From a bacterium (lineage in GTDB: Bacteria; Margulisbacteria; Marinamargulisbacteria; SXXA01), in the NCBI GenBank assembly GCA_010028705.1, contig RHAI01000001.1, positions 3,104 to 67,103 on the forward strand: a DNA stretch of 64,000 nt, in the 5' to 3' direction. Under the pieces are notes generated by a model. The model did not search any database, was not told the origin of the DNA, and saw only the letters and a list, made by a program, of their open reading frames with translations. Of this stretch, positions 3,568 to 64,000 are shown one piece after another (the first letter of the stretch is position 1; the number at the start of each line of letters is the position of its first letter). A program made the translations under genes and the position numbers.

Positions 3568-4476
3568 CTATTTGATCACTAGCAGGCGATTTCGCCCCGA
3601 AACGCGATCACTGCCCGATCTGGCGGTTACAACAATGAGATAGGGTCCATTGGCGACCATCTCGCCAGTCCCATCACGACCATTCCATGAGACCCGATTA
3701 AATCCGGGCGACGCACCGTCACGCCCAGCAGGTACGAAATCGGTCCAAATCATACGGCCATTCATGGCAACAATTTTGATATCGATATCCGCCGCACGCG
3801 ATAATTGATACTCGATGACCGCCGTCGACTGATTCGGGTTTAACGGATTGGGCCCACTGATTAATCCAGATAGTCGAAGTGCGGATTCAGCGCGTAAATT
3901 AGAAATCGTACTGGCACTATAGTTCCCTCCAGAATCCCACACCTCAAGCCGCAACGAGTAGATTCCATTCGGCAATGGAGACGTGACTCGCATCGACGCC
4001 GTAACCGAGGACTGAGTCTCACCCTGGCGATTTTCAGATACAAGGGTCTGGTTGGAGGCGTCATTGAGTGAAATATTCCAACTCGATATCGTCGAATCGA
4101 TATCAAAAAAGCCCGCCTCAAACACCGTTGATACCCCAATAGAATCGCCCGTGCTCACCCATTGGCCCGCTGACATTACCCCTCGGATGCCGGGAGGGTT
4201 TATATCCAACGCCAATGGAACGGAGTCACTACCCGATGCCTTAAAATCAGACCCTACCCCTCGGTTGGCCGAACTCTCTTTATTAGCGGTTGTGGTCCGA
4301 ATCGGATTCGCCCCACCGCCGACCAACTGAACACGGGTCGGAGTAGCGGTATCGCGACGGATCTGATACTCGTTTGGAATGTCCGGACGATTGTTGGTCA
4401 ATGCAAGACTCGGCCGAGCGTACACTGCGCCTAGCATCATCAACAGAATCGCGATTTGAAATGGTAAACGAGTCAC
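3568..4476 (-). CDS. Secreted protein with a T9SS-type C-terminal sorting domain (FlgD Ig-like fold)
   Basis: A 302 aa ORF with a signal peptide (MTRLPFQIAILLMMLGAVYARPSLA). The C-terminal ~85 aa read NPLNPNQSTAVIEYQLSRAADIDIKIVAMNGRMIWT...RVSWNGRDGTGEMVANGPYLIVVTARSGSDRVSGRNRLLVIK. This matches the Por-secretion CTD pattern NPFNP..T.I.Y.L....V.L.IYD..G..V........G.H...W.G.......G.Y.....A......K. Confidence 0.55.
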   Translation of the reverse strand: MTRLPFQIAILLMMLGAVYARPSLALTNNRPDIPNEYQIRRDTATPTRVQLVGGGANPIRTTTANKESSANRGVGSDFKASGSDSVPLALDINPPGIRGVMSAGQWVSTGDSIGVSTVFEAGFFDIDSTISSWNISLNDASNQTLVSENRQGETQSSVTASMRVTSPLPNGIYSLRLEVWDSGGNYSASTISNLRAESALRLSGLISGPNPLNPNQSTAVIEYQLSRAADIDIKIVAMNGRMIWTDFVPAGRDGASPGFNRVSWNGRDGTGEMVANGPYLIVVTARSGSDRVSGRNRLLVIK

Positions 4477-37890: not shown

Positions 37891-40185
37891 ATGAATATAT
37901 TTAACGGCGCCAACCCGATGATTACCCAAGTAGCTTACAATACAACATCCCCCCGACGGACGGATAATTCACTCCCCGTATGCCCGATTCCTACCCCAGT
38001 TAGTCGCCATCAAGACCCCATCGCCATGGACTCATGGACACAACTCGAGCAACTTACTCGATCAAATATTCGCTGGTCACTCCCTCCGGATCAATCCGGC
38101 AATACCGCCCGGCCGATTTTTCCAACACTTGCGCCTGATTTAATAAGTCAATTAGTTAACGGCGACACAACAGCTGCCACAATGGCCGCAAAATACGGCC
38201 GATCCGATGATCTCATCAGGCTGTATCACCTCGACCCCAGAGGCTTAAATCAGACTGACAAAAAGGGATTGACTCCCGCCACAATGGCCGCCAAATCGGG
38301 CCAATCAGATGTACTTAAAACAATTCATCTACTTGACCCTAAATTGCTCACCCAATTTGATAATTACGGCCGAACTCCCGCCACAATAGCCGCCATCTCA
38401 GGACAATCAGACGTACTTAAAATGCTCTACTCAATAAATCCGAAACTACTCACCCAATTTGATAAAAACGGTTGGACTCCGGCTACATTAGCCGCCAAAT
38501 TAGGCCAATCGGAAATAGTTCTCACACTTCACCAACTCAATCCCAATTTGCTCAAACAACACAATAAGAATGGAAAAAACGCCGCGACAGAAGCCGCTTA
38601 CGAAGGAAATTTGGATGTCATACAGACGATTTCCAAAATCGACTCAAATTTGTTACGAATCTTTGACAAAAAAGGGCGGACTCCCGCCACAATGGCGGCT
38701 CAAGAAGGTCATCCAGACATCCTAATTGCACTTCATCACCTGGATCCGGATTTACTAAAACAATCGACCCAATTTGGGCATACCCCAGCAACCACGGCTG
38801 CCAGAAAAGGAAAATTAGGCATACTCAATACTCTAAACCAACTCGATAGTCGTCTGTTACATCAATACAACAAGCACGGAGATACGCCAGCAACCACGGC
38901 CGCCGGAGAAGGAAAAGCAAACGTCATCACGACCCTCCACACACTCAATCCCCAATTGATCACCCAATGTAATAAACACGGCTGGACGCCAGCCACCCTT
39001 GCTGCGAAAACAGGAAACGCCAACGTCATTAAAATCATCCACCAACTCAATCCTGAACAATTATCTCAAGTCGACAGTAACGGGCGAAACGCCGCATCAA
39101 CAGCTAGTGAGGCCGTTAGAGATGACGTATTAAATGCACTCCACACACTCAATCCCCAATTGCTCTCACAGTGGGATAATCACGGCGCAACGTCTGCGAC
39201 AAGAGCTGCCGAATTGGGGCGTTCATTCGCAATTATCACCCTGCATAAACTGAATCCAGAATACCTGACCCAATTCGACAAAAATGGCCGAACACCTGCC
39301 ACTGTCGCCGCCAAATCAAAAAAATTAGGCATCATCAAAACTCTCTACCGACTTAACAAAGACTTGCTCAACCAATCGGATGATAGCGGACATAATCCAG
39401 CCACTGTCGCCGCCAAATCAGGCCAATTAGACGTCATCTCCACTATTTACGAGCTCAATCCAGAAGTACTCATACAATCGGATCGTAGCGGCCATACACC
39501 AGCCACTATCGCCGCGACATTAGGCAACTTAGACGTCCTCATCACACTCCACAACCTCGATCCTGCGTTACTCACCCAACTCGACAACAACGGCTGGACT
39601 CCCGCCACGAAAGCCGCGTCCAAAGGCAACTTAGACGTCCTCAAAACTCTGTATCAACTGGATCCCAAACTATTGCTACAACTCTGGCTCCTGATCGGGA
39701 GCATAAGCGTTCTGGGGATCGCCACCCTCGGAGGGATTTGGTATTTATTACCGTTGGAACAACTCCACCCCAATGCACTCGGTCAAGCTATTCTTGAACC
39801 ACCTATCCCCATCATGGCGCCCCAGGTCGCCGAAGTTCCAATGATCGGACTCGAGGTGGTCACCGCCCAACGCAATCAACTGATGGCTCAACTGAGTCAA
39901 CTTGGGGAGAATGATCACCTCGATGTCGGCCATGGGATGGTCGCCCGTCGAGACGGAAGCCTTTATGATCAGAGCGAAAGTAGCATGCTTAATCTCTTAC
40001 AACGACCTGATGCTCGATACCGCGACCCTACTTCATCGACCACGGAATCTCCATCAACGCCTCCATCTTGTGACGTCAGAATATCCGTATCAATGGGCGA
40101 CGTGTGCGCTCTGTCAGGAACCCACGGCACCAGAGACCTGGCTCCATTACTATTGGGCCACTCGGAACATGGCCCCGCCAAGTGA
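37891..40185 (+). CDS. Paralog B of the GWTPAT ankyrin-like repeat membrane protein (~15 repeats); the C-terminal conserved domain is frameshifted
   Basis: A 764 aa ORF with 34-aa repeats (e.g. DKKGLTPATMAAKSGQSDVLKTIHLLDPKLLTQF), a TM helix (LWLLIGSISVLGIATLGGIWYLL) and then HGMVARRDGSLY. After that the annotated frame encodes a non-conserved tail. The conserved C-terminus CALCQEPTAPETWLHYYWATR is encoded in another frame (39902-40192). Confidence 0.55.
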   Translation: MNIFNGANPMITQVAYNTTSPRRTDNSLPVCPIPTPVSRHQDPIAMDSWTQLEQLTRSNIRWSLPPDQSGNTARPIFPTLAPDLISQLVNGDTTAATMAAKYGRSDDLIRLYHLDPRGLNQTDKKGLTPATMAAKSGQSDVLKTIHLLDPKLLTQFDNYGRTPATIAAISGQSDVLKMLYSINPKLLTQFDKNGWTPATLAAKLGQSEIVLTLHQLNPNLLKQHNKNGKNAATEAAYEGNLDVIQTISKIDSNLLRIFDKKGRTPATMAAQEGHPDILIALHHLDPDLLKQSTQFGHTPATTAARKGKLGILNTLNQLDSRLLHQYNKHGDTPATTAAGEGKANVITTLHTLNPQLITQCNKHGWTPATLAAKTGNANVIKIIHQLNPEQLSQVDSNGRNAASTASEAVRDDVLNALHTLNPQLLSQWDNHGATSATRAAELGRSFAIITLHKLNPEYLTQFDKNGRTPATVAAKSKKLGIIKTLYRLNKDLLNQSDDSGHNPATVAAKSGQLDVISTIYELNPEVLIQSDRSGHTPATIAATLGNLDVLITLHNLDPALLTQLDNNGWTPATKAASKGNLDVLKTLYQLDPKLLLQLWLLIGSISVLGIATLGGIWYLLPLEQLHPNALGQAILEPPIPIMAPQVAEVPMIGLEVVTAQRNQLMAQLSQLGENDHLDVGHGMVARRDGSLYDQSESSMLNLLQRPDARYRDPTSSTTESPSTPPSCDVRISVSMGDVCALSGTHGTRDLAPLLLGHSEHGPAK
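38180..39660 (+). repeat. In-frame tandem ~102-bp repeats encoding the ankyrin-like modules of paralog B
   Basis: Adjacent units are near-identical, e.g. ...caatcagatgtacttaaaacaattcat... / ...caatcagacgtacttaaaatgctctac..., and ctcacccaatttgataa recurs. Boundaries are approximate. Confidence 0.6.
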
Positions 40186-47474: not shown

Positions 47475-48543
47475 GCGACGTTTTTTACTGTTGATCTCAG
47501 TATGGTGTCTGACATTAGCCACACCTGTAGTCGCGGATTTATCCGAGGTACTGTTTACAACGCCAATTGTTTCTGGCAAATTCTACGACACGTCATTTAT
47601 CGGGATAACATCCCAAAATACCCTCACAAAGTATTCCATTACGGGACAAAAATTCTGGACAGTATCCATCGAACATCCCCCGCTCCAGCAATTGGATATC
47701 CTATTTAACCGAGTGATCATGATCGATGGCCAAGGATCGATCGAATGCCGTGATGGAAACTTTGGAATCCGACTTTGGGGAATATCGTCCGAAAAATATC
47801 GCCGATTATTTCTTCAGTATCCGATATTTTTTGCGCTGCGCGACAATGGTGCTATCGATGCGTTTGATTTCTCGAGCGGGTGTCTCTTATACGGGGTCCG
47901 GTACCCGGAGTCGTGCCGCATTTTTGATAAAATTCCAAATGGGGGCGGACTCTTTGCTCAAAACGGCACGAATGTCAGCTATATTTCTCCGGACTTGTCG
48001 GATGAAACAATCATCACTCATGAGATGAGGCCCACCGGGGAGGAGCTGGATATCACGCGTGATCGGTTGGCATATCTAGACAACACTACGATTCGTGTGT
48101 CTTCAGGGGATTCAACGATTGACACGTACGTTTTAGGCTCATCGCCCAGTCAAATACTCATTCCTAAGAACCGATTTGTGAGTATAAACTACTCCGAATC
48201 AGACCAAAATCAATGGATAATTCACTACCCATTGCTAGTCGAAATCAACCTTCCATATGGCCTGATTCGTGCTTTTAACGTCACAACGGATGACACATAT
48301 CTGGAATGGAAAGAGTTGGACCCCGACAAAAAATGGAATTCCGTTTGGTGGCAAAACGGATTAGTGGGACTCGTGAACTCTGATAACGTACTCACGATTT
48401 GGGACTACGACACCAACCGAATTCTAGGCTCTGTCCCGTGGGACGCCAAAAAAGGACACCCCATTGCGATCAATTACACACGCGATATTATTTCGATCGC
48501 CACATCAGAAAAAATGTACGTTGCGGCAGTGAGACGAAATTGA
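47419..48543 (+). CDS. Hypothetical secreted protein (possibly beta-propeller-like)
   Basis: A 374 aa ORF with a signal-like N-terminus (RRFLLLISVWCLTLATPVVA). No recognised motif was found. Confidence 0.35.
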   Translation: MIFDAISRVNKVLQKNVDKRRFLLLISVWCLTLATPVVADLSEVLFTTPIVSGKFYDTSFIGITSQNTLTKYSITGQKFWTVSIEHPPLQQLDILFNRVIMIDGQGSIECRDGNFGIRLWGISSEKYRRLFLQYPIFFALRDNGAIDAFDFSSGCLLYGVRYPESCRIFDKIPNGGGLFAQNGTNVSYISPDLSDETIITHEMRPTGEELDITRDRLAYLDNTTIRVSSGDSTIDTYVLGSSPSQILIPKNRFVSINYSESDQNQWIIHYPLLVEINLPYGLIRAFNVTTDDTYLEWKELDPDKKWNSVWWQNGLVGLVNSDNVLTIWDYDTNRILGSVPWDAKKGHPIAINYTRDIISIATSEKMYVAAVRRN

Positions 48544-50225
48544 CACTCCGAGTGATTAAAGACACTTATACCATTCAATCCGAACTTTTCAGGGACTCGA
48601 TATCCCGTTCTTTCGCAGGAAACTCGCCAACAGGGGACGTCATTATCACGCAATACGATCCCAAATTTACGGGATCCGGCACAGTCAATGCGTTAATCAC
48701 CGTGGGAAATCGGTGGTTAAATGCCTCGGGTGACTACGGCCCGCGATTAATCGATTTTCATTATGACGGCCAATCCTTTTATGCCATATATTCAGTCCAG
48801 AAACCGTGTCGGCCATTAGTCACTGTATTACGGGATTCCCCATCGATATCAATGCAGATGTTAGATCAATGGACCAAAGAGTTGCTCGATCAACTCTGTA
48901 TCCTTGAATCACTGGGTGTATATCATGGGGGAATAAGTCTCCATTCGATAGTGATTGACGGAGAGGGAAAGCTGTCGACAATCCATGCAGGGCTTCATGC
49001 TGAAATCGTACGCCTCAATCTTTCCGAGATACGCCAAATCGAATCCGCTATTTTTCTGACTGAATCCCAATTAAATGGCCACCCATCAGTGATTCAAGAT
49101 GACATTCATGCGGTTGGAGTTCTCACTTACCTGTTCTTTTCAAATACATGGCCCTACGAATTTACCGGGGAGCTGGCACGAGCACGCGCATTAATCGGGG
49201 TTCGGCATCGTCCCTTTTCACCGTCAAACGAACTCATTCCTTCCAATTACCCAATGATTATTGACTGCGCATTGATGTCTAAATCGGGCGACGGATACCC
49301 CTCTATGCAAGAACTGAGATCGGCATTTTTACCAACTAAAGCTCCACAACCGACTCCCAATTCCCCAATTATTGATCCTATCAGTACCGAGATTGCCCGG
49401 GGGCGCGATTCAGATGAACGCCAACCGCTTGATTCCCGAATCCTCGATGTATTTCATCGCAAAAAACGCATTATAACCACCGTGATCATTGGGTTAGTGT
49501 TAGCATTTACCACAAATTACCTGTACGTATCGTATGTCACCTCGATTCCTGAAATTACCGTTCCAAATATTCAAGGCGAATCACTGACCTCAGGTATATC
49601 GCAGTTGGAAGCGGTCCATCTCCAAGGAAAAGTGGCCGCCTATCGACCCGACTATACTGTGCCAGAAGGTACCATTTTAGAAACTCGCCCACCCGGAGGG
49701 CGCCAAGTTAAGCAAAACCGAATCATTCTATTAACTGTTTCAAAATATACTTCCGAATTAAAAATGCCCGATTTAATTGGGCGAACAATTACTGACGCGC
49801 AACAACTTCTGCCAAACCCAAAAACAAAAATTAAAATTATTGGAGATGCGTTTTCGATGTCGGCAACAGCCGGTGAAATCATGTCACAAATCCCAACTCC
49901 GGGAGTAACTATTAACGCCAATTCAGCCGTTCAAGTTACGATCAGTAAGGGGTTTCCGGTCCAGATAGACATCCATCCAGGCGGAAAAAAATATATTGCG
50001 ACGATAATTATTGGGGTTCCACCCGATTGGCCCGAGCAAGAAATTAGAGTAACAGTAAAGCATGGCGGCACAAGCCAACAGCTACTATCGAAGACAGTAT
50101 CCCCAGGAGATACGACTCAGACATCCGCCCCCCTCGATCTGTCCGACACATTGTCCGTCAGCTACAATGGAAAATCAGCTATCTCACAGTCTGTAAAAGA
50201 CCTACTGGCAGAAGAGGCGGAATGA
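48540..50225 (+). CDS. Membrane-anchored protein-kinase-like (probable pseudokinase) with two extracytoplasmic PASTA domains
   Basis: The N-terminal ~330 aa have a kinase-like layout with degenerate motifs. The Gly loop reads FTGSGTVNALITV with no obvious VAIK Lys. The catalytic loop reads YHGGISLHSIVID instead of HRDLKPxN. No DFG is present. A TM helix (IITTVIIGLVLAFTTNYLYV) follows. Two PASTA modules follow (VPNIQGESLTSGISQLEAVHLQG...ILLTVSK; MPDLIGRTITDAQQLL...VQVTISKG). The start is inferred as TTG at 48540, overlapping the upstream stop. The ORF track starts at 48399. Confidence 0.55.
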   Translation: MTLRVIKDTYTIQSELFRDSISRSFAGNSPTGDVIITQYDPKFTGSGTVNALITVGNRWLNASGDYGPRLIDFHYDGQSFYAIYSVQKPCRPLVTVLRDSPSISMQMLDQWTKELLDQLCILESLGVYHGGISLHSIVIDGEGKLSTIHAGLHAEIVRLNLSEIRQIESAIFLTESQLNGHPSVIQDDIHAVGVLTYLFFSNTWPYEFTGELARARALIGVRHRPFSPSNELIPSNYPMIIDCALMSKSGDGYPSMQELRSAFLPTKAPQPTPNSPIIDPISTEIARGRDSDERQPLDSRILDVFHRKKRIITTVIIGLVLAFTTNYLYVSYVTSIPEITVPNIQGESLTSGISQLEAVHLQGKVAAYRPDYTVPEGTILETRPPGGRQVKQNRIILLTVSKYTSELKMPDLIGRTITDAQQLLPNPKTKIKIIGDAFSMSATAGEIMSQIPTPGVTINANSAVQVTISKGFPVQIDIHPGGKKYIATIIIGVPPDWPEQEIRVTVKHGGTSQQLLSKTVSPGDTTQTSAPLDLSDTLSVSYNGKSAISQSVKDLLAEEAE

Positions 50226-55639: not shown

Positions 55640-55790
55640 GCCTGTGTATAACTTGTAGATAACTAGTGAAAATCTATGATATTTGTTATTAAAAAAAACA
55701 CGAAATAACCCGTAATAAGGCATTAAATTAAACTCAAATCAATTAGATAAAAATCTCCCTATATACAAAAACACAATCTGTGGATAACCT
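55640..55790. promoter_or_regulatory. DnaA-box cluster upstream of dnaA (candidate oriC part or dnaA autoregulatory region)
   Basis: A perfect TGTGGATAA (rc TTATCCACA) lies at 55779-55787. TGTGTATAA at 55643-55651 matches TGTGNATAA. A 1-mismatch TGTAGATAA lies at 55653-55661. The surrounding sequence is AT-rich. Confidence 0.55.
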
Positions 55791-55796
55791 GTTGAA

Positions 55797-57140
55797 ATGT
55801 TGCATGAACTTTGGGAAAAAATATTGATCAACCTCAATCAAACATTATCGGGTCCGGGATATCAAACATTCGTCTCATCATCTATTCCAAAATCATTCGA
55901 AGACAATATCTTAACCATTACTGTTGGAAATCGCTTCTCGATGGATTGGATTAAGGAAAAGTGTGAACAATCTGTTCGTGACACACTTCAACAAAACGGA
56001 TTCTACCCTGTAATCGTTATGTACGATATTGATTCTACCCCGGTCACCAATGAATCCAGTCAAATGGATTTACTTGAGGTCACCACCCCGCCCCCTGTAA
56101 TTACAAATCCAAATGGGATGTTTAATCCCAAATATAATTTTGACAACTTTATTGTCGGCCATAACAACCGCTTTGCACATGCGGCATCGGAAGCAGTCTC
56201 CAAGGCACCCGCCAAAGCGTACAACCCCCTCTTTATTTATGGGTCTGTTGGACTAGGTAAAACACATTTGCTCCACGCGATTGGCAACGAAATTCAGAAA
56301 AAACACCCAAAACTCAAACTATTTATGGTGTCATCAGAAAAATTTACGAACGAACTTATTAATTCGATCAAAGATAAAAAAGTCGAAAACTTTAGATCGA
56401 AATACCGAAACGTTGATGTGTTACTCGTCGACGATATCCAATTTTTATCTGGGAAGGAACAAACTCAGGAGGAATTTTTTCACACATTTAACGAACTTCA
56501 CAGCAACAACAAGCAAATAATATTGACCTCAGACCGACCACCAAAAGAAATTCCAACACTTGAAATTCGACTGAGAACTCGCTTTGAATGGGGATTAATC
56601 GCCGACATTCAACCTCCTGAATTTGAAACTAGAATTGCTATTCTTAGAAAAAAAATTGAGTTATATAACATTCGGATTTCCGACGAGATCCTTCATTTTA
56701 TTGCAACTCAAATTCCGACAAACGTCCGCGAAATGGAAGGATGCCTGACTAAAATTTCGGCATATGCGTCACTTCTAAATACGGAAATTACCCTTTCAAT
56801 TGCGAGTAACGTCATTCGGGATATGATTGGCATTAAAAACGATAAACCGCTCACAATCACTCACATCAAACGGAAAGTATGTGATTACTTTAACGTATCA
56901 AACGTCGATCTATGCTCCAAAGGCCGAACAAGAGAACTGACGTACGCGCGGCAAATTGCGATGTATTTAGCCAGGGAATTAACGAACGTGTCACTGCCAA
57001 AAATTGGCGAAAATTTTGGAGATCGTGACCATAGTACCGTCATGCATGCATGTGACAAAGTGAAAACGTTGTTAGTGAATGACCCTGAAACAAAAAGTAT
57101 CATCAATCTGCTAATATCAAATATCAAAAACGACGAATAA
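55797..57140 (+). CDS. dnaA: Chromosomal replication initiator protein DnaA
   Basis: A 447 aa ORF with the AAA+ Walker A GSVGLGKTHLLHAIGNE, Walker B LLVDDIQF and a C-terminal DnaA-box-binding HTH (...YARQIAMYLARELTNVSLPKIGENFGDRDHSTVMHA). Confidence 0.95.
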   Translation: MLHELWEKILINLNQTLSGPGYQTFVSSSIPKSFEDNILTITVGNRFSMDWIKEKCEQSVRDTLQQNGFYPVIVMYDIDSTPVTNESSQMDLLEVTTPPPVITNPNGMFNPKYNFDNFIVGHNNRFAHAASEAVSKAPAKAYNPLFIYGSVGLGKTHLLHAIGNEIQKKHPKLKLFMVSSEKFTNELINSIKDKKVENFRSKYRNVDVLLVDDIQFLSGKEQTQEEFFHTFNELHSNNKQIILTSDRPPKEIPTLEIRLRTRFEWGLIADIQPPEFETRIAILRKKIELYNIRISDEILHFIATQIPTNVREMEGCLTKISAYASLLNTEITLSIASNVIRDMIGIKNDKPLTITHIKRKVCDYFNVSNVDLCSKGRTRELTYARQIAMYLARELTNVSLPKIGENFGDRDHSTVMHACDKVKTLLVNDPETKSIINLLISNIKNDE

Positions 57141-57147
57141 TGATTCC

Positions 57148-57355
57148 GTTGATAACGCTGCGTATAACTACCTAACTTTTTGTTGATAACTGTTGATAAC
57201 AGTATGGTTATTATTTTTTTCCGCATTTTTATCTACAGTCCAATTTACTATTTTTAATTGAATAACCAAATAAAATAGACTTTATTAACATATTAACAGG
57301 TCCCTACTAGATACTAAATTTAAAATAAATATATTAATCTTTATAAAAGCTATTA
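57148..57355. promoter_or_regulatory. Candidate oriC: DnaA-box cluster plus an AT-rich DNA-unwinding element between dnaA and dnaN
   Basis: Four DnaA-box-like 9-mers lie within 57148-57200 (cgTTGATAA, TGcGTATAA, TGTtGATAA x2; 1-2 mismatches to TGTGNATAA). A ~125-nt stretch that is mostly A/T follows at 57230-57355, just before dnaN. Confidence 0.55.
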
Positions 57356-57385
57356 ATGAATCATCAAGAATTAAGCCGAGGAAAC

Positions 57386-58528
57386 GCCATGCAATTTTCA
57401 TGTTCTGCATCTCAGTTACAAAAAGCCGTCGGAATCGTAGAGCGAGCTATTTCTCAACGGACTACACTGGCCGTTTTGGAGAATCTTTATTTAGAGCTCA
57501 GTGGAAATCGATTAAAACTTCGAGGTAACGACCTAGAAATTGGAATCGAAACTAGCCTGTTCGTTGAGTCTGCTGGGGTGGATGGTTCGGTGTTAGTTCG
57601 GGCGAAGACTTTTAGTAGTATTCTGTCTAAAATTCAGGCCGACACCCTGAATGTTCGAGTCGATGTGAACTCAAAAATTGTGATAGTTGCGAATAAGGTT
57701 GATTTCGAAATTTTGTGTACCCCGGTTGAAGATTATCCGATTTTCCCCGCCGTGGAGTCTGGTATTTCATTCACTATGTCGGCGTCCGTGATACAGGATT
57801 TGATTCGGCATACAATTTTTGCCGTTAGCTTTGATGAAACAAAGCAGTTTCTGAATGGGATTTTCGTCAAAGTTGAGAGTGGCAGCATCAATTTCGTTGC
57901 GACGGATGGCTATCGCTTGGCGTTAAAACGTCATACTCTCGACCAAAGCAGCGTCGGGGATTTTTCATTAATCGTTCCTCATAAAGCAGTCAATGAATTA
58001 CTTAAAATTTTGGGCACTTTGGGGGATGACGCGCCAATTAAATTAAATGTTTCTGAGTCTCAAATTGCCTTTGAGTCCGAACGGTTTTTATTAGTGTCGC
58101 GTGTAATTAAGGGGCAATTTCCCGATTACCGGCAAGTGATGCCAAAACACTCTGATAATTTATTTTCAGTGTCTCGGCATTCACTGTTAAACGCGTGTGA
58201 TCGAGCCACGATTATTGCCGCAACCTCAAATAATGTTGTTCGATTAAATTTCAGCGAAACCAGCGTATTGATCAAAGCTAACGCCGCGAGTTTAGGTGAC
58301 TTTAAAGAAGAAATTGATGTTTCGCGGTTGAGTGGTGCGGGTGAAGTGAAAATCGCATTTAACGTTAAACTGGTATTAGATGGGATTCGCGGAATTAGCT
58401 CGGATGATATTCGATTGGAATTCAATCAGGGAGTCTCGCCGTGCGTGGTTCGTTCGGCGGCGGATGAGGATTATGTATACATTGTGATGCCGATACGTAC
58501 AAATGACTTTCAGGAGGAAACTGCCTAG
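57386..58528 (+). CDS. dnaN: DNA polymerase III beta sliding clamp
   Basis: Start set at MQFSCSASQLQKAV, which aligns with the MKFT... N-terminus of DnaN homologs. The ORF track starts 10 codons earlier. The three-domain clamp length is ~380 aa. Confidence 0.9.
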   Translation, partial: AMQFSCSASQLQKAVGIVERAISQRTTLAVLENLYLELSGNRLKLRGNDLEIGIETSLFVESAGVDGSVLVRAKTFSSILSKIQADTLNVRVDVNSKIVIVANKVDFEILCTPVEDYPIFPAVESGISFTMSASVIQDLIRHTIFAVSFDETKQFLNGIFVKVESGSINFVATDGYRLALKRHTLDQSSVGDFSLIVPHKAVNELLKILGTLGDDAPIKLNVSESQIAFESERFLLVSRVIKGQFPDYRQVMPKHSDNLFSVSRHSLLNACDRATIIAATSNNVVRLNFSETSVLIKANAASLGDFKEEIDVSRLSGAGEVKIAFNVKLVLDGIRGISSDDIRLEFNQGVSPCVVRSAADEDYVYIVMPIRTNDFQEETA

Positions 58529-58533
58529 GTGAA

Positions 58534-59601
58534 ATGCTGCGTCGGATCTGGGTTAAAAATTTTAGAAATTTATCCGAGCAGCTTTTAGAGTTAGATCCTA
58601 AATTCACAGTTATTCGTGGGGAAAACAATCAGGGAAAAACAAATTTATTAGAGGCCATTTATTTTGGTATTTCAGGGGGGACGATTATGGATGAGTCGTT
58701 ACATGATCTCCCCAGTTTTTCCTCGGCTGATTCGGCCGTTGTGGGGGTTGATTTCGAGTCGTCTACTTCCCATCGGCTGTACCGAGAGGTATCGAGGCGG
58801 GGGGCAAAGTTTCCAGTTCTGGATGGTGAATCGGTTCGTCAAGCGAGGGACCAGGTACCTCATGGCGCTGCCTACTGGTCGGCTGATCTGATTCGATCAA
58901 TTCAGGACTCAGCCGACGAGCGCCGAAAGATGGTTGATCGAATAGTGGTTAAAAAAGATCGTAAACTCGAGTTTTTGTACAAGTCGTATCAAAGGGTTCT
59001 GTCACAACGAAACGCGTGTTTACGAACCGGTAATCGGTCTCTTATTCGATTTTATAATGATCGGTTTATTGAGCTATCGATGGCCGTAACTTCGGCGAGA
59101 GAAAGAATGGTCGTCGAGTTATGTGATCGGGTAGGTCCCTATATATCTGACATTTTAGGGGACCGGCTACTGACGGTGAGTGGGGTGATCCAAATGAAGG
59201 GAATTGATCGTTTGCAAGACGTTGATTCATTCAAGCACGCGCTAGAACATCGGCTTGAAAAAGATTTCGCGTTGGGGTTTACGTCCGTTGGGGCCCATCG
59301 AGATGATATTGAATTTTTTATAGACGGTCAGTCGGTGGTGCGTTATTTGTCACGAGGCGTTAATCGTATTTTTGCATTGTTATTAAATTTGTCTGGTCTT
59401 GAATCGATGGTTTCCAAGGTGCCGATGATTTTATTAATTGATGACGCCTTCTGTGAGGTGTCCAGTCGGTTAAAGGATCGCGTACTACCGTTTTTATTGG
59501 GGCGGTTTCAGATCGTTTACGTTTCGACGAATACTGACGAATTTCGTGATTTTTCGGGGAAACGATTTATAATGGAATTGGGTGTTTGTACTGATGGATA
59601 A
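58534..59601 (+). CDS. recF: DNA replication and repair protein RecF
   Basis: A 355 aa ORF: MLRRIWVKNFRNLSEQ...GENNQGKTNLLEAIYF, with Walker A and a C-terminal SMC-like signature region. Confidence 0.9.
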   Translation: MLRRIWVKNFRNLSEQLLELDPKFTVIRGENNQGKTNLLEAIYFGISGGTIMDESLHDLPSFSSADSAVVGVDFESSTSHRLYREVSRRGAKFPVLDGESVRQARDQVPHGAAYWSADLIRSIQDSADERRKMVDRIVVKKDRKLEFLYKSYQRVLSQRNACLRTGNRSLIRFYNDRFIELSMAVTSARERMVVELCDRVGPYISDILGDRLLTVSGVIQMKGIDRLQDVDSFKHALEHRLEKDFALGFTSVGAHRDDIEFFIDGQSVVRYLSRGVNRIFALLLNLSGLESMVSKVPMILLIDDAFCEVSSRLKDRVLPFLLGRFQIVYVSTNTDEFRDFSGKRFIMELGVCTDG

Positions 59602-60061
59602 GCTAGGTGATACGCTTGGACGGATTAAGGCGGTCAGTACGGTATCTCGAAACCACCACTTAGTCAGTCAAATTGTAAAGGCATGGCGGGATTTAGCTGG
59701 AAAATTGGCGGATGATATTTCCGTAGAGTGGGTTCGTGACAAAGTTCTTTACCTGAGTTGTACTAACTCACTTTGGATTTCAGAAGCGGAATTTATCAAG
59801 CCGAGGTTACTGGAGCGAATCGGCGCCGAGTTCGGTAAAAATGTTATTAAATCAATTAAGATTCGGTATTTTGATCCGATTCGAAGCGACGGTTCGGTGA
59901 TGACTGCACCTGTTCCAAAATCGTTACAGCAATTGATATTGGAATCAAACTTTGCGAGAAGGGAACAAGGAATGTCTCTATGCGACGCCTGTGGTGATGT
60001 ATACTGTAACGGCGGCCAATGCATATTTTGCAAGGTAAAATCTCAATCTACCCAAGGTTAA
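59582..60061 (+). CDS. DUF721 (DciA-like) domain protein with a C-terminal Cys-rich zinc-ribbon-like tail
   Basis: It follows recF. ...WVRDKVLYLSCTNSLWISEAEFIKPRLLERI... resembles the DUF721 core. The tail reads CDACGDVYCNGGQCIFC. The real start may be MDKLGD at 59594. Confidence 0.55.
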   Translation: MFVLMDKLGDTLGRIKAVSTVSRNHHLVSQIVKAWRDLAGKLADDISVEWVRDKVLYLSCTNSLWISEAEFIKPRLLERIGAEFGKNVIKSIKIRYFDPIRSDGSVMTAPVPKSLQQLILESNFARREQGMSLCDACGDVYCNGGQCIFCKVKSQSTQG

Positions 60062-60114
60062 TGGTTAGTTGCTACCATGGGTGCTGGTACAGTTTGTCGA
60101 GGAGGTGAATTTGA

Positions 60115-60201
60115 ATGGGAAGTTTGATTAAAAAACGACGAAAAAAAATGCGAAAACATAAATATAAAAAGTATGGACGCAAAATGAAGGCCAAACGATA
60201 G
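60115..60201 (+). CDS. 28-aa highly basic mini-protein resembling ribosomal protein bS22 (DUF4295-like)
   Basis: MGSLIKKRRKKMRKHKYKKYGRKMKAKR. A perfect SD (GAGGAGGTG) lies 8 nt upstream. The N-terminal pattern MGS[VL]IKKRRK.M.K.K resembles bS22 of Mycobacteria and Bacteroidota. It is too short for the ORF track. Confidence 0.5.
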   Translation: MGSLIKKRRKKMRKHKYKKYGRKMKAKR

Positions 60202-60291
60202 TTCGTATAAAAATGTTTAAAATTATTACCCCTGGGAATTATAGCGGTCTCATCATATTTAAATAATTTATAGTTCCCGGGGGGTATTTTT

Positions 60292-60645
60292 ATGGAGTCT
60301 ACGGCGGCCGTCGTTGATCGATATAACGTCGAAACAGTTATTGCTCATATTGTGCGATTGGGAGTCGGTATTTATCGGAAATTTGGTCGGTGTGTGGTGG
60401 TGTCCTCGAATCCTCACTCCACTGGATTTAGTAAAGAGCTGGTTGAATTTTCTGGAACAGGTTTGCGATATATTTCGGTACTATCACGATGTCAAAGCCG
60501 TTTTTATTTTGATTACTCAACGAATACGTTAATTGGAGGTGACCGCGAAATTTCAGTCGGGTATTTCGTTGGCCTTGGTGCTGATGTATTTCGGCTGGTT
60601 CGGGGAATCGATTCTCGAAAAAGTCATATTTATTTAATTTCTTAA
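60292..60645 (+). CDS. Hypothetical protein
   Basis: A 117 aa ORF with an SD-like GGGGGGT upstream. No recognised motifs were found. Confidence 0.35.
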   Translation: MESTAAVVDRYNVETVIAHIVRLGVGIYRKFGRCVVVSSNPHSTGFSKELVEFSGTGLRYISVLSRCQSRFYFDYSTNTLIGGDREISVGYFVGLGADVFRLVRGIDSRKSHIYLIS

Positions 60646-60655
60646 GGGGGGAATT

Positions 60656-62569
60656 ATGGGCGGGGTATCTGAATGTCGAGCTGTTGGAGGGTCCGATTTC
60701 CGTCAACCATTGAGTGGCGTTCAATCGGAAATCGATTTTATTCGGAACGTTACGGGTTCGTCGACGTCTCGTGTTCGATTGATAAATTTTGAGTCTATGT
60801 CAGAGCGATTTCTGTCTCAATTTTCACGGTTCCGGGGGGCGTGTCGAGCGTTGTTGGCTGTGGATAATCCGTTGAATGTTAAAAAAGTGGTTACGGATAT
60901 GGCGTTTCGTTCGTTTTTTGCTCCGCCTACCGCGATGGTTGAGTCGGCATCCCGGTTGTTGGATAGATTATCGTCGGTTGATATGTCGTTTTTGAATAAA
61001 GTAGATTCGATCGTGTCTGTTTGGCGTTCGTTATCGAGCGCTGGTTTTCTGCGTAGTCGAGATAATCGAGAGTTCGCTGTCGGTAAAAAAAACTGGGGGC
61101 ATCCAATTAATCGGGGCCTGCATTCTTTTGAGATTGACGATATAGGGTTTGATCGGCACGATTTACATACGATTGAGGGGGGCGATTTTGAAGCTCGGTT
61201 TAGGCCGCATTCTGTGTCGGAATTTGCCTCACAACTAAGGTTATCCGATTTCGATTTATTAGGTGAGGATCATAGCTTGACGTCTGATTCAATAGTTGGG
61301 TCGGTGTTGCATGATTGCGAAGTCCAGTGTTTTGATCCGTCCTTGATGGGTGGGTCCGGAGGCGTAGGGACCTCTGTTAGTACATCGGGGCCATTGGGAT
61401 CGTTGTATCAGTTTGAAATGGATAGTAGTTATTTGGCTTTGGACGATGGTAATTCAGCGGTAGCGAGGAAACCTTTACCCCTGGTTGGTGCCGAATTACG
61501 CCCGGTAGGTGACAGTGAGGAAGTTTATTATCATCGTGGGTCCCAATTGGCTCAACTTGAGCAGATTCCGATTGAAAACAGCTCGAGGTTAGGAATAAAT
61601 AATTTTGAAGTCGACGCCGTTAATTCAGATAACAATCATTTTTTATCGAGATTTGAAATTTGTTTCAAACGAACAGTGGAAAAGGTGAATAAAACGGAGA
61701 CGATAAGTGATTCTGGGTATTGTCTGAATAGGGATAAAGCTGGATATTTGGATGTAAAAGCTAACACCGTGAGGAAAAAATCTGTTTTTGAGCAGTTTGA
61801 TGATATGGTCGCCCACCGGTTCGGGGCTGAATTTATGAATTCTAGTCAAAATGTTGTCGACTATTTTCGTTGGAGAGATTGTTACGGGAACCGGCTAGGC
61901 GCTCATTCGTCGGGTGATGGTGACGGCGTCGGCCGGCCGGGTGGGACCGGGGGTGGATTTCTTGGTGTTGTGTGCGAGCCGGATCGCTATGATTTGTCGG
62001 GATTGGGTGTTTACGACGAGTTGTTCGACGATTTTTCGGATCTTGGGGAGGAGTATGAAAATATTTTCGGCTCGGTCCGGCGGGTCCATGGGTATATTGA
62101 TCGGATTAATCACCGGTGGGATATCGCGATTGAATATATTGAAACGTTTTTGAAGCTCTGTGGTGTCTCAGTAGGTAGTAGTGGGAAGTTTCCGCGATCG
62201 TCGATTGACACGTTACGATCATTGGAAGGTCTTATCAATGATAGGTCGTTGTTGGTTAAAGTTTTGGGTAGTGATAACGCGGTCGTGTCGACGTACACGG
62301 ATTTGGTTGAGTTGTGTAATGAAAATGAAAAAGATATTAAAAAAGTGACACATATAATCGACGGTATTATGATTGCTACTGAGCGATTTTGCGGTGAAAT
62401 AGGTATTTTTGATAAGGATCATCGATATTGTGATTGTGATGAGATTCGGTCTCACGTGAAACATTTGAAAAATGATCTTAATCGTATAGGTCAATTTAAA
62501 TTGGGCAGTTATGAATCACTTTGGGAGGCCACTAAATACGCCGTGTATTCGAATGTCGAGCCTGCTTAA
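60656..62569 (+). CDS. Hypothetical 637-aa acidic, Ser/Gly-rich cytoplasmic protein
   Basis: A long ORF with an upstream SD (AAGGGGGG). It has no TM helix and no recognisable catalytic motif. It sits where gyrB usually lies in the dnaA-dnaN-recF cluster. Confidence 0.45.
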   Translation: MGGVSECRAVGGSDFRQPLSGVQSEIDFIRNVTGSSTSRVRLINFESMSERFLSQFSRFRGACRALLAVDNPLNVKKVVTDMAFRSFFAPPTAMVESASRLLDRLSSVDMSFLNKVDSIVSVWRSLSSAGFLRSRDNREFAVGKKNWGHPINRGLHSFEIDDIGFDRHDLHTIEGGDFEARFRPHSVSEFASQLRLSDFDLLGEDHSLTSDSIVGSVLHDCEVQCFDPSLMGGSGGVGTSVSTSGPLGSLYQFEMDSSYLALDDGNSAVARKPLPLVGAELRPVGDSEEVYYHRGSQLAQLEQIPIENSSRLGINNFEVDAVNSDNNHFLSRFEICFKRTVEKVNKTETISDSGYCLNRDKAGYLDVKANTVRKKSVFEQFDDMVAHRFGAEFMNSSQNVVDYFRWRDCYGNRLGAHSSGDGDGVGRPGGTGGGFLGVVCEPDRYDLSGLGVYDELFDDFSDLGEEYENIFGSVRRVHGYIDRINHRWDIAIEYIETFLKLCGVSVGSSGKFPRSSIDTLRSLEGLINDRSLLVKVLGSDNAVVSTYTDLVELCNENEKDIKKVTHIIDGIMIATERFCGEIGIFDKDHRYCDCDEIRSHVKHLKNDLNRIGQFKLGSYESLWEATKYAVYSNVEPA

Positions 62570-62619
62570 TTGTTAGTTTATTGTTGCCGTAACGTTCAGC
62601 GGTGTCTATACTCTGATGG

Positions 62620-63384
62620 ATGTCATGTAAAGTTCTAGCGGTGGTAAATCAAAAAGGCGGCGTCGGCAAAACGACGACCGCTATTAATATTGCGTCTTAC
62701 CTAAGTGAATTTGGGAATAAAGTACTGTTAATCGATTTGGATTCTCAATCGAACGCCACCTCTGGGTTAGGGCTTCGTCCCGATACAATACAGGCTGGGA
62801 TTTATGATCTATTAATATCAGAGGCTCCTATTTCGACGGTTCTATATCCGACCCCATTTGATAAATTGCATATTATTCCAAGTACAAAAGATTTGGCTGG
62901 GGCGGAAGTCGAGCTGGTCGGATTTGATTCACGTGAAACCGTACTCCGTGACCGTATATCTGGATTGAGGTCTTATTATGATTATGTCGTGATGGATTGT
63001 CCGCCGTCCCTCGGTTTGATTACCTTGAATGCCTTGGTTGCAGCGGATAGGACATTGATCCCAGTCCAGTGCGAATATTTCGCCTTAGAAGGTATCGCTA
63101 GTTTATTAAACACCTTAGGTCTGGTTAAAGAAATGTTCAATCCGGGTCTGGAAATTTCAGGTATAGTCCTTACGATGTATGATAAGCGAACAGCCTTAAA
63201 TCGGCAGGTGGCCGAAAACGTTCGGACGTATTTCAAGGACTTGATCTACGAAACAATTATTCCTCGAAATGTTAGGCTGTCTGAGGCCCCGAGTCACGGG
63301 TTACCGATTTCGTTATATAAATCTGATTCTAGGGGTGCCATTGCGTACTTAAATTTAGCTCGGGAGGTAAATAGGCGTGATTAA
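62620..63384 (+). CDS. parA: Chromosome-partitioning ATPase ParA/Soj
   Basis: A 254 aa ORF with the deviant Walker A KGGVGKTTTAINIA and the MDCPPSLG motif. Confidence 0.9.
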   Translation: MSCKVLAVVNQKGGVGKTTTAINIASYLSEFGNKVLLIDLDSQSNATSGLGLRPDTIQAGIYDLLISEAPISTVLYPTPFDKLHIIPSTKDLAGAEVELVGFDSRETVLRDRISGLRSYYDYVVMDCPPSLGLITLNALVAADRTLIPVQCEYFALEGIASLLNTLGLVKEMFNPGLEISGIVLTMYDKRTALNRQVAENVRTYFKDLIYETIIPRNVRLSEAPSHGLPISLYKSDSRGAIAYLNLAREVNRRD

Positions 63385-64000
63385 AGACAATGTAAGGTTA
63401 GGAAAAGGGTTAGAGGCATTGATTCCAAGGACTACATTAAGTGCGGGTCGTACGATATTGTCGTTGCCTATAACTGCGATTGTTCCAAATCCGTTTCAGC
63501 CGCGTCGATTGTTTGACGACGATTCGATGAGTTCCCTTGTTGCTTCAATAAAAAAACATGGTTTAAATCAGCCTATTTTGGTTCGGCGTAGTGGTGACGG
63601 GTACGAATTGATTGCTGGCGAACGTCGATTGAGGGCCTGTCAGATCGTGGGTCTTGAGCAAATTCCGTCTATAATTAAAACTGTTAGTGACGAGGAGTCA
63701 CTTCAACTTGCTTTGATTGAAAATATTGAACGGCAGGATCTCAATTCTATTGAGGTGGCCCGGGCGTATCAACGCCTAGTTGATGAGTTTGAATACACCC
63801 ATCAGGCGATAGCGGACGCGTTTGGACGAAGTAGGTCAGCTGTTTCGAATACAATGAGGTTGCTAAATTTGCCCGCGATTGTTCAGGATGATGTGGCTAG
63901 CGGAGTGATTTCTGAAGGACATGCACGGACGCTTTTGTCACTGGGTACGGAAGAAGAAATGTTGGATTACGTGGATCGTATAAAACGTGGAAAACTTAAT
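63377..64000 (+). CDS. parB: Chromosome-partitioning protein ParB (N-terminal ~208 aa; the gene runs off the window end)
   Basis: A GTG start at 63377 overlaps the parA stop. The translation reads VIKDNVRLGKGLEALIP...ITAIVPNPFQPRRLFDDDSMSSLVASIKKHGLNQPILVRR...GYELIAGERRLRA...HTH. This is the canonical ParB/Spo0J N-terminus and HTH. Confidence 0.8.
   Translation, partial: MIKDNVRLGKGLEALIPRTTLSAGRTILSLPITAIVPNPFQPRRLFDDDSMSSLVASIKKHGLNQPILVRRSGDGYELIAGERRLRACQIVGLEQIPSIIKTVSDEESLQLALIENIERQDLNSIEVARAYQRLVDEFEYTHQAIADAFGRSRSAVSNTMRLLNLPAIVQDDVASGVISEGHARTLLSLGTEEEMLDYVDRIKRGKLN

Follow-up and report, generated by a model that had tools for sequence, protein, structure and literature searches.

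A clade-restricted gene pair between the replication-origin genes and parAB in a Marinamargulisbacteria lineage

In the canonical replication-origin cluster of Bacillota and Actinomycetota, dnaA, dnaN, recF and either remB or a DUF721 gene are followed by gyrB and gyrA. What stands at this position when gyrB does not, and does it belong to the origin region? The question is raised by a 64-kb stretch from an uncultured freshwater bacterium of the Marinamargulisbacteria (contig RHAI01000001.1, 64,000 nucleotides; the whole stretch is called the window in the following). The locus is like the canonical cluster in its dnaA-dnaN-recF-dciA order, in strand and in the adjoining DnaA-box clusters, but it has no gyrB and instead runs on into a probable gene for the ribosomal protein bS22, two orphan genes and parAB. 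The orphan genes encode proteins of 117 and 637 amino acids (aa) and are called orf117 and orf637. A first-pass annotation, made from the letters alone, had described the succession of recF, DUF721, open reading frames (ORFs) of 28, 117 and 637 aa and parAB, and all these ORFs are found at their places (Table 1). We consider it very probable that orf117 and orf637 are a real, native and clade-specific gene pair.

Conservation of orf117 and orf637 in related species

Related contigs were reached through RecF homologues and represent three further species: species B (L084, L085 and L094), species C (L086 and L087) and species D (L088 and L089; NCBI GCA_009924325.1). All three have the gene order dnaA-dnaN-recF-dciA-bS22-small ORF-large ORF-parA-parB, and the part from bS22 through the two orphan ORFs to parAB is thus kept in three species other than the host. 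In these species the small ORF encodes 117 or 140 residues and the large one 607, 504 or 549; the gap between the two is 10-30 nucleotides (nt) in all four species. When a profile built from the proteins of species B, C and D alone was run against the 322 six-frame ORFs of the window, its only matches were orf117 (E 1.4e-16) and orf637 (E 6.7e-8), indicating that these ORFs are more than chance. On this evidence, orf117 and orf637 are vertically inherited, always adjacent and known from a narrow clade of four species only, and their conserved motifs (see below) mark them as two probable new, clade-restricted protein families.

The composition of both genes is that of their neighbours. The excess of G over C and of T over A is the same as in recF, dnaN and parA (GC and AT skew are +0.22 and -0.21 for orf117, +0.30 and -0.15 for orf637, and +0.23 and -0.13 for recF), and GC content, both overall and at third codon positions (GC3), is also like that of the neighbouring genes. 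Purine-rich sequences that resemble Shine-Dalgarno (SD) sequences precede the 28-aa ORF (GGAGG), orf117 (GGGGGG) and orf637 (AAGGGGGG), in agreement with the good SD sequences that had been claimed for all three. The cumulative GC skew of the window has its minimum at ~56-58 kb and clusters of DnaA boxes flank dnaA; both genes are therefore less than 5 kb from the probable origin and on the leading strand. In position, orf117 and orf637 are origin-proximal, as the DnaA-box clusters and the switch in GC skew are 3-5 kb away. The earlier proposal that these are native leading-strand genes and not a recent insertion is borne out by composition, by synteny in three species and by the lack of any phage, plasmid or defence match (see below).

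Sequence divergence and selection

Between the window and species B, C and D, the proteins of the locus differ widely in conservation. Identities are high for DnaA (83%), DnaN (71-74%), ParA (80-85%), ParB (70%), the ribosomal protein L20 (85%) and bS22 (96-100%), and low for RecF (38-41%), DciA (33-37%), orf117 (29-31%) and orf637 (21-23%, and this over the C-terminal ~200 aa only). RecF and DciA have diverged to an unusual extent in this clade: control pairs of other lineages with DnaA identities of 78-83% have RecF identities of 54-74%, and at a DnaA identity of ~71% RecF has 27-30% identity in this clade versus 53-58% elsewhere. The genes recF, dciA, orf117 and orf637 stand together as a single block of fast evolution, with the near-invariant bS22 gene as the sole interruption.

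Selection was examined by comparing the window with three near-identical strains (L001-L003), using the Nei-Gojobori method against L001. Between the window and L001-L003, orf637 differs at 21-22 positions. Against L001 there are 12 non-synonymous and 9 synonymous differences, with a proportion of synonymous differences (pS) of 0.021 and a ratio of non-synonymous to synonymous proportions (pN/pS) of 0.39; for parAB, pS is 0.018 and pN/pS ~0.1. These ratios indicate that orf637 is under purifying but relaxed selection. From dnaA through orf117, pS is only 0.001. The contrast in pS between positions 56369-60828 (0.001) and 60828-64000 (0.018-0.021) shows that the strains are a recombination mosaic and implies that recombination probably broke close to the start of orf637, either immediately before it or within it.

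Homology searches

No family match above chance was found for orf117, orf637 or their orthologues in sequence searches of Pfam, NCBIfam, PADLOC, PHROGs and PDB, either with single sequences or with alignments; PADLOC and PHROGs returned sub-threshold chance matches only. A tblastn search of 72,556 plasmids and 50,697 phages had no match to either protein. A scan of JGI metagenomes with the orf117 profile identified only the host species and species B. The fused alignment of orf117 and orf637, used as query, returned the same-species protein only, as low-complexity words displaced true relatives. The 637-aa protein, to which the first-pass annotation could assign no motif, has indeed no assignable domain in searches of Pfam, NCBIfam, PDB and 1.84 billion representative proteins.

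Position of gyrB

GyrB is absent from the 64-kb window, both in a tblastn search with a Pfam-verified GyrB from a Brevibacillus locus and in a Pfam scan of the ten largest window ORFs. The gene was also not found in ~4 kb upstream and 10 kb downstream of the window; the downstream 10 kb contain parB, gidB, gidA, an outer-membrane-like 400-aa protein, fliJ, fliI, fliH, lgt, sodA and aroA. Thus, gyrB is missing from the cluster, as had been claimed, and the suggested possibility that it lies immediately beyond the window finds no support within 10 kb downstream.

The first-pass annotation had further proposed that gyrB was replaced by the three ORFs. We compared ten loci of the wider clade with dnaA loci from other phyla as controls. 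In 43 control loci gyrB is at most 2.5 kb downstream of recF and in three it is elsewhere in the locus; eight loci, unrelated to the clade, have no gyrB despite room for it. None of the ten wider-clade loci has gyrB. The more distant relatives L090, L091 and L092 (DnaA identity 61-71%) retain dnaA-dnaN-recF-dciA, and dciA is followed by unrelated genes: neither gyrB nor orf117 or orf637 is present there. As relatives without the orphan pair also have no gyrB after dciA, gyrB was not replaced by these ORFs, and the eight unrelated control loci point the same way. In this lineage gyrB does not belong to the origin cluster, which is ordinary gene-order variation.

Domain organisation of the two proteins

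The orf637 protein is acidic and rich in Ser, Gly and Asp, as first described (isoelectric point (pI) 5.2; Ser 11.0%, Gly 9.1%, Asp 8.3%). It has no hydrophobic segment (maximum 19-aa Kyte-Doolittle hydropathy 1.15) and is predicted to be soluble, with neither a transmembrane segment nor a signal peptide. Residues 1-135 are weakly conserved, predicted helical in a low-confidence AlphaFold2 (AF2) model, and end with the degenerate sequence SRDNREFAVG. Residues 136-445 are a Ser/Gly/Asp-rich, low-complexity, hypervariable linker; 15 of the 21 strain differences are within residues 229-431. From about residue 445, an acidic aromatic patch is followed by a conserved, predicted-helical C-terminal domain, with the invariant residues R483, R487 and D489 (motif NRIxHRxD) and S599-H-V-K602. 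In comparisons of the family profile with PDB, only zippers of the GCN4 type matched, over the last ~60 residues; these matches are a coiled-coil signature and not homology.

In the orthologues, the N-terminal region is directly followed by a basic motif, S-(K/G)-R-N-R-L-x-(S/V). Six diverged 17-aa copies, with the repeat SKRNRLxSV, stand in tandem in species B (L084 12581-12850, residues 146-235 of the 607-aa orthologue). The motif is single-copy in L087 of species C and in species D, and at least four almost identical copies of 51 nt surround a scaffold gap in L086, also of species C (3978-4100 and the 100-N gap beside it). With several copies in L086 and one in L087, either the copy number is variable or the repeat has collapsed in assembly.

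The orf117 protein is basic (pI 9.3) and possibly beta-rich in its predicted structure; its conserved motifs are FG(R/P)CVVV and G(R/K)EISxG(F/Y). We rejected for orf117 the identity of a RemA/RemB-like protein (PF04025), whose small gene stands between recF and gyrB in Bacillota (hhalign probability of 0.1% against 23 ORFs in the RemB position, and no Pfam match). An acidic chaperone of type III secretion fits neither its pI nor its possibly beta-rich low-confidence model.

A predicted hairpin upstream of orf117

A stable hairpin (16 bp, -24 kcal/mol, z -2.8) is predicted between the bS22 gene and orf117. Its 3' arm holds the orf117 SD sequence GGGGGG, and it is followed by a U-run and the orf117 ATG (region 60229-60291). 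The same arrangement, with the SD sequence inside a hairpin of other sequence, is present in species B (L084 11708-11775, z -3.25) and species C (L087 ~2871-2946, z -5.1). On structure prediction of three sequences only, the hairpin looks like a terminator of the dnaA-to-bS22 transcript that would also sequester the ribosome-binding site of orf117, and burial of the SD sequence would imply low or conditional expression of orf117; the hairpin may thus serve as a terminator or attenuate translation.

Possible roles of the gene pair

The predicted-helical N-terminal region, the variable linker, the acidic patch and the zipper-like helical C-terminal domain together suggest that orf637 is a scaffold or adaptor, and we regard this as an even call. 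A role of the pair in origin organisation or segregation is suggested by its fixed place between dnaA-dciA-bS22 and parAB in four species, less than 5 kb from oriC, and we take it for the likeliest single role, though one that is clearly more probably wrong than right. In the explanation that we favour, the pair would organise or anchor the origin/ParABS region, or otherwise modulate replication or segregation, with orf117 as the small partner of orf637. Expression would probably be limited by the hairpin that buries the SD sequence of orf117. As a whole, this explanation has in our view about the same chance of being right as of being wrong. That the pair is a new origin- or ParABS-associated scaffold system, a functional analogue of organisers of the PopZ/McdB type without sequence kinship to them, is a bolder statement and an unlikely one. 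In such a system the C-terminal zipper would oligomerise orf637, basic SKRNRL motifs in varying number would be displayed by the linker to recruit ParA, ParB, DNA or the replisome, and the pair may be co-evolving with the equally fast RecF and DciA.

Two groups of known proteins invite comparison. PopZ, DivIVA/Wag31 and HubP/FimV are cytoplasmic proteins in which a long linker, acidic or of low complexity, joins a short structured N-terminus to a helical domain for oligomerisation at the C-terminus; their sequences are poorly conserved and they are functionally linked to ParAB. The predicted architecture of orf637 is similar, but its link to ParAB consists in gene adjacency alone, it has no sequence or profile similarity to these proteins (no Pfam match at E <= 1), none of the four orf637 orthologues has a Pfam or NCBIfam match, and orf637 is much longer than PopZ. 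By analogy, orf637 would resemble the polar scaffolds in architecture and not be a member of them. McdB and PomX/PomY are encoded beside a gene of the ParA family, diverge very fast and have disordered basic segments and a coiled coil. Adjacency to a ParA gene and fast divergence are common to these proteins and orf637; in contrast, the parA gene of the window is already paired with a canonical parB, and the orf637 of the window lacks the basic repeats.

Several results weigh against the favoured explanation. A HMMER scan of 1.84 billion representative proteins and a word-indexed search of 5.8 billion proteins identified for orf637 the same-species protein only, and the profiles of both families had no match beyond the clade in 9,735 ORFs from ~95 loci. 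A crude heptad score marks residues 595-622 of the window protein, around SHVK, and the signal is weak. The single-sequence AF2 models are of low confidence, with a mean predicted local distance difference test score (pLDDT) of 32 for orf637 and 39 for orf117. The orf637 of the window has no basic repeats beyond the one degenerate SRDNREFAVG copy. Lastly, the spacing between the large ORF and parA varies from 50 to ~680 nt across species, so that co-transcription with parAB is not assured, and the pair may have come to lie beside parAB by accident of history.

A first alternative is that orf637 is a fast-evolving protein that interacts with a host or the environment, such as one exported by a type III or flagellar-type apparatus with orf117 acting as chaperone; its position at the origin would be incidental. 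Its identity of 21-23% between species in which DnaA has 83%, a pN/pS of 0.39, above that of parAB, variable-number tandem repeats in the orthologues and the lack of homologues elsewhere in protein searches would all fit such a protein. So would a 764-aa ankyrin-repeat protein encoded in the window, an export ATPase cluster (FliH-FliI-FliJ) ~4 kb downstream of the window, and the tight coupling of a small ORF to a large one, as in chaperone-effector pairs. However, class I type III chaperones are acidic, while orf117 is basic and, in a low-confidence model, possibly beta-rich; the synteny beside parAB is strict in four species; and the FliHIJ genes look flagellar, with an FlgD-like gene elsewhere. 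In addition, RecF and DciA, encoded in this block too, evolve fast as well, making speed a trait of the region or lineage that is not specific to effectors. We consider this alternative improbable.

To a similar degree, we doubt that the pair acts not in segregation but as a regulator of replication initiation or of helicase loading, by binding DnaA, DnaN or DciA. Such a function would agree with the position of the pair, which comes immediately after dnaA-dnaN-recF-dciA-bS22 and shares their strand, and co-evolution could explain why RecF, DciA, orf117 and orf637 are one accelerated block. There is also a perfect DnaA box (TTATCCACA) within orf637, at 60859-60867 on the minus strand; the 64 kb have only two further perfect boxes, one of them in the dnaA promoter region. 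This single box may nevertheless be chance, as the window has 26 matches to the DnaA box with one mismatch where 17 are expected. Further points against a replication regulator are the terminator-like hairpin between bS22 and orf117 and the wider relatives, which have the same dnaA-dciA block without the pair.

It is very unlikely that gyrB was displaced by an inserted mobile element or a defence island to which the ORFs belong. The orphan proteins lack annotation, which would fit, but GC content, GC3 and strand skews are like those of the neighbours, synteny is conserved in four species, there is no PADLOC, PHROGs, plasmid or phage match, no integrase, repeats or tRNA flank the pair, and relatives without it also have no gyrB here; native composition, conserved synteny and the absence of element matches effectively refute such an insertion. 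Least likely of all, and likewise effectively refuted, is that orf637 is a degenerate gyrB remnant, or that the ORFs are non-coding artefacts: its 637 aa are close to the length of GyrB (639 aa in L005) and it occupies the gyrB position of Bacillota and Actinomycetota, but its orthologues have 504-607 aa and are predicted to be mostly helical or disordered, the hhalign probability for GyrB is 0.2% with no HATPase_c, DNA_gyraseB or Toprim match at E <= 1, and coding sequence is indicated by ORFs that are intact in all four species, by a pN/pS of less than 1 and by the profile matches between species.

If the pair does work at the origin or with ParAB, it would add a lineage-specific organiser, from a lineage with no cultured member, to the few known scaffolds that organise bacterial chromosomes. 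At present the value of the locus is mainly one of annotation: gyrB adjacency should not be expected in this clade, and the bS22 gene is missed by gene callers. The accelerated recF-dciA-orf117-orf637 block among highly conserved origin genes is also to be flagged.

A probable bS22 gene downstream of dciA

The 28-aa ORF had been called bS22-like, and it passes the threshold of the corresponding Pfam family and aligns over its full length with solved bS22 chains. The match to PF08213 (COX24_C/AURKAIP1) has 27.3 bits (cut-off 23, E 3.3e-6) and covers residues 1-28. With 23.7 bits, the NCBIfam equivalog NF047430 (ribo_bS22) is under its cut-off of 34; it is a full-length match and the sole one in NCBIfam. 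All five PDB matches are bS22 chains (residues 1-28 aligned, E 0.04); in comparison with the solved mycobacterial bS22, the window ORF reads MGSLIKKRRKKMRKHKYKK... against MGSVIKKRRKRMSKKKHRK... Lys and Arg make up 57% of its residues. These matches identify the 28-aa ORF, by sequence, as the ribosomal protein bS22. Its identity of 96-100% in species B, C and D, where RecF has only 38-41%, and DNA differences between species that are nearly all at third codon positions suggest strong purifying selection, as would be expected of a ribosomal protein.

Ribosomal protein bS22 has ~30 aa, is highly basic, occurs in mycobacteria, Bacteroidetes and Borrelia and is often missed in annotation (PMC10618245). 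The proteins of mycobacteria, Flavobacterium johnsoniae and Borrelia burgdorferi (PMC10618245) share with the window ORF the length of ~30 aa and the N-terminal motif MGS(L/V)IKKRRK, whereas the C-terminal half of the window protein (HKYKKYGRKMKAKR) is unlike the mycobacterial sequence, and only in this lineage does the gene immediately follow dciA. Like its Borrelia counterpart, the gene is often skipped by gene callers: it is present yet uncalled at L084 11589-11678 and L085 4919-5008. The bS22 assignment is thus known biology already, of a gene that is systematically under-annotated.

Layout of the locus

The region is a native replication-origin gene cluster of the host bacterium. Coordinates of ORFs in Table 1 are those of the six-frame ORF list of the window; for dnaN, gene callers place the start at 57389, resulting in a protein of 379 aa.

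Table 1. Features of the origin region, in window coordinates
Feature	Position	Strand	Evidence
DnaA-box cluster upstream of dnaA, probable oriC part 1	55643-55787		three TTATCCACA-like boxes, one perfect
dnaA	55797-57140	+	Pfam domains; 83% identity to species B
DnaA-box cluster between dnaA and dnaN, probable oriC part 2	57181-57237		three one-mismatch boxes within 57 bp
dnaN	57356-58528	+	ORF list and Pfam; 71-74% identity to relatives
recF	58534-59601	+	Pfam SMC_N and AAA_15
dciA (DUF721), 159-aa ORF	59582-60061	+	PF05258
probable bS22 gene (rpsV-like), 28 aa	60115-60201	+	PF08213
predicted hairpin between bS22 and orf117	60229-60284	+	folding energy and z-score
orf117	60292-60645	+	positional orthologues in species B, C and D; profile match
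orf637	60656-62569	+	ORF list; profile match
orf637 N-terminal region, aa 1-135	60656-61060	+	alignment; low-confidence AF2 helices; motif analysis
orf637 variable linker, aa 136-445	61061-61990	+	unalignable between species; strain differences
orf637 acidic patch and C-terminal domain, aa 446-637	61991-62569	+	alignable across four species
parA	62620-63384	+	PF13614, E 1.9e-62
parB, extends past the window end	63377-64000	+	ParB_N and HTH_ParB in L001

Other genes in and near the window

The match of DciA to PF05258 (51.2 bits, cut-off 24, E 1.4e-13) covers residues 7-94. Outside this domain match, the C-terminus (59960-60061) is Cys-rich, with the pattern CxxC...CxxC (CDACGDVYCNGGQCIFC), and from its sequence the motif looks like a zinc ribbon. 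The DciA of species B keeps the Cys motif as CNECQ...CCVFCRC.

The 764-aa ankyrin-repeat protein is encoded at 37891-40185, and the skews at 38-40 kb are aberrant (GC -0.23, AT +0.21); the gene could be foreign or serve host interaction. At 48399-50225, PASTA domains are the sole Pfam match of a 608-aa protein, with no kinase or transpeptidase domain at E <= 1e-5; its counterpart in species B has 562 aa. Beside fliJ, ~3.4 kb past the window end (L001 16000-17202), is the 400-aa ORF, which has no Pfam match. It has a hydrophobic N-terminus, is rich in Gly, Tyr and Ser and ends with a C-terminal Phe, and to judge from these features it looks like an outer-membrane beta-barrel. Together, the beta-barrel-like protein and the neighbouring fliJ suggest a diderm, flagellated organism.

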